Shown here one piece after another: positions 7,631-11,321 of a DNA stretch of 27,571 nt. A model generated the notes under the pieces. The model did no database searches. It worked only from the letters and a program-made list of their open reading frames with translations, and was not told the DNA's origin. The translations under genes and the position numbers were made by a program. Within the stretch, counting starts at the first letter, position 1. Each line of letters opens with the position of its first letter. Source of the stretch: a virus (taxonomy: Duplodnaviria > Heunggongvirae > Uroviricota > Caudoviricetes). The DNA lies in IMG/VR virus record IMGVR_UViG_2617271072_000003; one strand, given 5' to 3'.

Positions 7631-11321
<3,691 letters not shown>

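Follow-up and report, generated by a model that had tools for sequence, protein, structure and literature searches.

A poly-T tract in the portal gene of a lambda-like prophage

The stretch of DNA analyzed here (27,571 nt; hereafter, the window) contains the late region of a lambda-like E. coli prophage. Based on the annotation of the matching reference region, it carries, in order, rusA, Q, a methyltransferase gene, lysis genes, Nu1, A, W, B, C, D, E, tail genes, J, lom, and the start of stf. A 99.9%-identical copy of its first 25 kb was found in six complete E. coli genomes, and each of these copies is ∼19 nt shorter. As references we used two complete, independent genomes from this set, those of strain fEC.1 (a pigeon isolate; L002) and strain EC_J_9 (a swine isolate; L003), which show zero differences from each other across all 27,552 nt. 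The four further genomes likewise match at 99.9% and are equally shorter than the window.

In both references, the region upstream of the window's left end (reference positions 1 to 1300) has an IS3-family transposase gene adjoining a truncated ren, and a DUF1364 gene there is also partial. The reference prophage lineage may be without its immunity and replication region and may be defective despite its intact structural genes. Within the window, the cargo slot between Q and the lysis genes holds a DNA methyltransferase gene (3206 to 4258) together with two hypothetical genes on the minus strand (1034 to 2664). This cargo is exchangeable, because strain 600468 has an ompC-like porin gene in this slot. 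In the tail region, the motif GGGAAAG at 17014 to 17020 lies at the end of a G-like open reading frame (ORF; 16616 to 17038), which overlaps the start of a T-like ORF (17020 to 17454). From its position, we take this motif to be the classical −1 programmed frameshift site of lambda G/GT, and it appears to be intact in the window.

The portal gene, the homologue of lambda B, lies between W and C and has the following features.

9730 to 10452, + strand: 5′ part of a lambda-family portal gene (gpB homologue), terminated after 240 codons by a premature TGA (ORF list, profile, and alignment)
9980 to 9995, + strand: aberrant tract comprising an inserted AT (9980 to 9981), a C, and T13 (9983 to 9995) (alignment to relatives and tract census)
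10445 to 10450, + strand: T6 run where all relatives have T5, a +1 frameshift that truncates the portal ORF (alignment to relatives)
10453 to 11341, + strand: 3′ part of the portal gene in a different frame, inside the ORF at 10160 to 11341 (the translation from ...FEPVEDGQTRG onward matches gpB)

On the + strand, the tract reads GGGTATC-T13-CCGG and is held by the ORF at 9730 to 10452, whose translation includes ...HQDHIVGYLFFFFRLSH.... The initial annotation had placed a T13 run at 9983 to 9995, and we confirmed 13 consecutive T residues at these positions on the + strand. This is the longest homopolymer of the window, the second longest being T8, and its length far exceeds what chance would give: shuffles that preserved dinucleotides gave an expectation of 0.11 T10 matches, versus the 4 overlapping ones seen, a count that was reached in no shuffle. 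In lambda gpB (NC_001416) and in the closest prophages, the sequence at the tract is GGG TCT TTT TTC CGG, which encodes the GSFFR of GSFFRLSH. Relative to this, the window has a net gain of 9 nt, made up of AT and seven extra T residues, by which GSFF becomes GYLFFFF (and GSFFRLSH becomes GYLFFFFRLSH). Both the lambda residues and the net gain had been given in the initial annotation, and both proved correct against NC_001416.

The run had also been described as translated in frame. This holds locally, since the frame is kept across the tract, but the portal ORF as a whole is broken farther on, where the +1 T at 10445 creates an in-frame TGA at 10450 to 10452 and leaves 240 of 533 codons. The truncated ORF matched Phage_portal_2 (PF05136; E = 2e-44) with 152.6 bits (cut-off, 32.9) over profile positions 2 to 198 of 354, and the reference portal protein scored 325 bits over the full profile. 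No complete portal ORF of ∼533 amino acids (aa) is present between W and C in the window, the remainder of the gene being in the other frame. The gene is nonetheless an orthologue of lambda gpB, with 98% identity over the first 240 residues, the W-B-C gene order, and the PF05136 match. It differs from gpB in a three-codon insertion with an S-to-Y change at residues 84 to 87 and in its truncation at codon 240, whereas the proteins of relatives have 533 aa. The exact 240-aa truncated protein was found in no record of the assembly gene index.

We considered whether slippage at T13 might act as a compensating frameshift that offsets the +1 T at 10445. This was ruled out by the ORF in the alternative frame (9785 to 10147), which stops at 10147. 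Because the insertion at 10445 is independent of the tract and the alternative frame terminates ahead of it, a full portal protein would not be restored by a tract of any length.

Tract length in related portal genes

Comparison with the portal genes of related prophages, a check that the initial annotation had proposed, revealed T6 in nearly all copies and T13 in none. Using a flank-anchored pattern with a variable gap, we recovered the tract from 119 IMG/VR copies, of which 113 had CT6, 3 had CCT5 (a synonymous change), and 1 each had T5, T7, and T8; thus, the maximum was T8, and none of the 119 had a tract of T9 or more. The exact T13 context had no match in IMG/VR, in GTDB genomes (one per species), or in JGI metagenomes. 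The 5,426 complete E. coli genomes had 4,532 places that matched, none of them with T13. Among these, the best matches span 172 nt (T6) versus 181 nt in the window; one match spans 173 nt (T7), and this copy is annotated as a frameshifted pseudogene. There was no in-frame length variant of the tract among the copies checked. Frameshifting variants at the same T6 run comprised T5 (L007), T8 (L014), and T7 (L063) in IMG/VR and T7 in NZ_CP104639.1 (L124). In database sequences, small miscalls of length or slippage thus occur occasionally but repeatedly at the portal T6 run.

Runs of at least nine A or T residues are prone to slipped-strand mispairing and to slippage of RNA polymerase. One could accordingly read the T13 run as a functional hypermutable tract, akin to a contingency locus or a site of transcriptional slippage, through which synthesis of the portal protein would be turned on and off, and its net gain of 9 nt, being in frame, speaks for such a function. 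We consider this highly improbable. A long run occurs at the site in no relative, the ORF is cut short by the +1 T at 10445 at any tract length, the alternative frame stops at 10147, and T13 is one of a set of homopolymer miscalls found across the window. We found no support for the frame-switching hotspot proposed in the initial annotation. Equally hard to credit is a T13 run that is real in the DNA of the isolate as a newly arisen hypermutable tract, in which slippage would turn an essential gene of head assembly on and off or make its transcripts heterogeneous.

Like the contingency loci of Haemophilus, Neisseria, and Campylobacter, the window has a coding sequence that contains a long mononucleotide run. 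Unlike those loci, its tract is neither conserved nor polymorphic as a long run in orthologues, the gene that contains it is broken, and many similar indels lie nearby. The absence of a long variable tract from the orthologues and of an otherwise intact ORF from the window argues against a phase-variable contingency locus. Programmed frameshifting and transcriptional slippage fare no better, as the portal gene of relatives is one uninterrupted frame with T6 and we found no conserved product of an alternative frame. We also considered a 9-bp target-site duplication, the footprint that excision of IS10, Tn5, or IS1 might leave, and rejected it on the grounds that the inserted AT plus T7 is no duplicate of the local 9-mer TCTTTTTTC.

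Small indels across the window

The initial annotation overlooked a second T-run insertion ∼450 nt downstream of the tract and, with it, the recurrence of homopolymer indels of this kind ∼17 more times in the window. Compared with the fEC.1 and EC_J_9 references, the window has 19 differences, which consist of 18 small indels (1737 to 26805; 14 insertions and 4 deletions) and a single substitution. Twelve of the 18 indels fall inside A or T runs of at least 4, and only 6.4% of the sequence lies in runs of at least 4 of any base. The proportion of T runs affected depends on their length, with 3 of 82 T4 runs (3.7%), 2 of 31 T5 runs, 3 of 8 T6 runs, and 2 of 5 T7 runs changed (∼40% for T6 and T7). 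On the + strand, 10 of 126 T runs were changed versus 2 of 143 A runs (Fisher P = 0.015), and 5 of the 15 T runs preceded by CG were affected. Not one of the 130 G or C runs of at least 4 was changed. The three T6 runs expanded in the window gained 7 (the T13 tract), 2, and 1 residues; apart from the T13 lesion in the portal gene, all indels are ±1 or +2 in size.

Seven genes that relatives keep intact are frameshifted by these indels; they comprise two accessory genes (a hypothetical gene and a DUF1398 gene), Nu1, the portal gene, the tape-measure gene H, a Z-like tail gene, and the tail fiber gene (stf). An eighth gene with indels, U, has a net in-frame gain of 3 nt. Two lesion sites apiece were found in the portal, Z-like, U, and tape-measure genes. 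Lesions outside the portal gene include the following.

7500 to 7504, + strand: T4-to-T5 insertion, of the same error class, which puts the small terminase gene (Nu1/nohD) out of frame (alignment and ORF list)
15520 to 15534, + strand: in the minor tail gene U, T6-to-T8 expansion with an additional C 6 nt farther downstream, giving a net +3 (alignment and homopolymer census)
19310 to 19817, + strand: in the tape-measure gene, +A in an A5 run at 19310, A for C at 19791 (the window's only substitution), and −G at 19817 (alignment)

The Nu1/nohD ORF in the window (7084 to 7530) encodes 148 aa, versus an intact gene of 546 nt in relatives. The compound lesion in U resembles the AT-plus-T7 lesion in the portal gene, and both net changes are multiples of three, which may be a coincidence. 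The substitution at 19791 sits 26 nt from the deletion at 19817 and may belong to a local stretch of low quality.

Natural evolution of this region is dominated by substitutions. Compared with the same reference, strain 600468 shows 67 substitutions over 23 kb without a single gap, and strain 8GC has 590 substitutions and 10 gaps. Of the 93 full-length portal genes drawn from phage records and IMG/VR, 89 could be aligned without gaps despite up to ∼30 substitutions; the window shows the opposite pattern. This bears on the possibility of prophage decay, by which T13 and the other indels would be real changes accumulated under relaxed selection, the portal gene would be a true pseudogene, and T13 would have arisen by stepwise replication slippage. 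The IS3 element beside the truncated ren in the references, and with it the possibly defective state of the lineage, is in keeping with decay, as are the frameshifting T5, T7, and T8 tracts in 3 of the 119 IMG/VR copies and the T7 copy annotated as frameshifted in a complete genome. However, neutral decay should consist mostly of substitutions, and the ratio of substitutions to gaps or indels is 67:0 and 590:10 in the relatives but 1:18 in the window. To proceed from T6 to T13 and gain AT would also take several steps, yet there are nearly no substitutions over 27.5 kb, and the asymmetry between T and A runs is unexpected under slippage on duplex DNA. We therefore regard decay as unlikely.

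A mismatch repair (MMR)-deficient mutator host, or exposure to a frameshift mutagen, could in principle have produced genuine homopolymer indels, as loss of MMR raises homopolymer indel rates in a length-dependent manner (PMC8510543). The spectrum reported for MMR-deficient E. coli lines nevertheless makes this origin very improbable: these lines had 30,061 substitutions versus 5,324 small indels, or 5.6 substitutions per indel (PMC8510543), and 18 events drawn from that spectrum would include 17 or more indels with a probability of 1.6e-13. Runs of G:C are also indel hotspots in MMR-deficient lines, an example being an 8-bp G:C run in leu tRNA genes (PMC8510543), whereas all 130 G or C runs of at least 4 in the window were unchanged.

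Probable origin and meaning of the T13 run

Our preferred explanation, to which we assign a probability of roughly 0.87, is that the T13 run arose as a miscall of homopolymer length in the consensus of an assembly that was polished poorly or not at all, and that it is probably not part of the organism's DNA. The initial annotation had raised an assembly artefact as an alternative, and this alternative is strongly favored by the near absence of differences other than indels, by their dependence on run length, and by the uniqueness of the tract; from these observations we infer a technical cause. In the organism, this site most likely reads GGGTCTTTTTTCCGG (T6), which is also the sequence of lambda and of every near-identical prophage. 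The sequencing or consensus process would have miscalled run lengths, mainly in T runs of the + strand and more often in longer runs, with the largest miscall, the seven extra T residues and a spurious AT, at the portal T6 run. The same process would account for the +1 T at 10445 and for the remaining indels of the window.

The asymmetry between T and A runs fits a systematic bias in reads or consensus better than it fits replication slippage, because slippage acts on duplex DNA and is blind to whether a run reads as T or as A. Taken together, the strand and context preferences of the indels suggest a systematic bias of the platform or basecaller. More speculatively, the CG|T(n) context and the excess of T over A hint at a flow-order or basecaller bias.

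Supporting a consensus error, the window differs from its references by indels and not by substitutions, and the probability of an error rises with run length. Homopolymer-length errors are the commonest residual errors of long-read-only bacterial assemblies (PMC8812927), and they are known to fragment genes (PMC12007338). The window resembles long-read-only or flow-based bacterial assemblies with such errors in that its differences are almost exclusively indels, are concentrated in homopolymers, and become more frequent as runs lengthen, and in that conserved genes are split into apparent pseudogenes (PMC8812927, PMC12007338). It departs from them in the unusual size of the +7 T change with its AT, in the excess of insertions over deletions, and in the preference for + strand T runs.

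Some of these features weigh against an artefact. The +7 T plus AT far exceeds the other errors in the window, and the net change of +9 nt keeps the reading frame, for which the chance under error is 1 in 3. Some long-read platforms are known chiefly for homopolymer deletions, and the 14:4 excess of insertions is at odds with such deletion-prone platforms.

Judged from the sequence comparisons, the T13 run is very probably an artefact and no biological frame-switching device. A T13 run that did exist in the organism would amount to a curiosity, namely, a portal gene with a hypermutable run, but our data lend this no support. The relevance of the finding lies mainly in data quality, as the source assembly has about one homopolymer indel per 1.5 kb in the window. 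Apparent pseudogenes, frameshifts, and simple-sequence oddities anywhere in the window are to be regarded as suspect unless reads support them, and the same probably applies to the source assembly as a whole.
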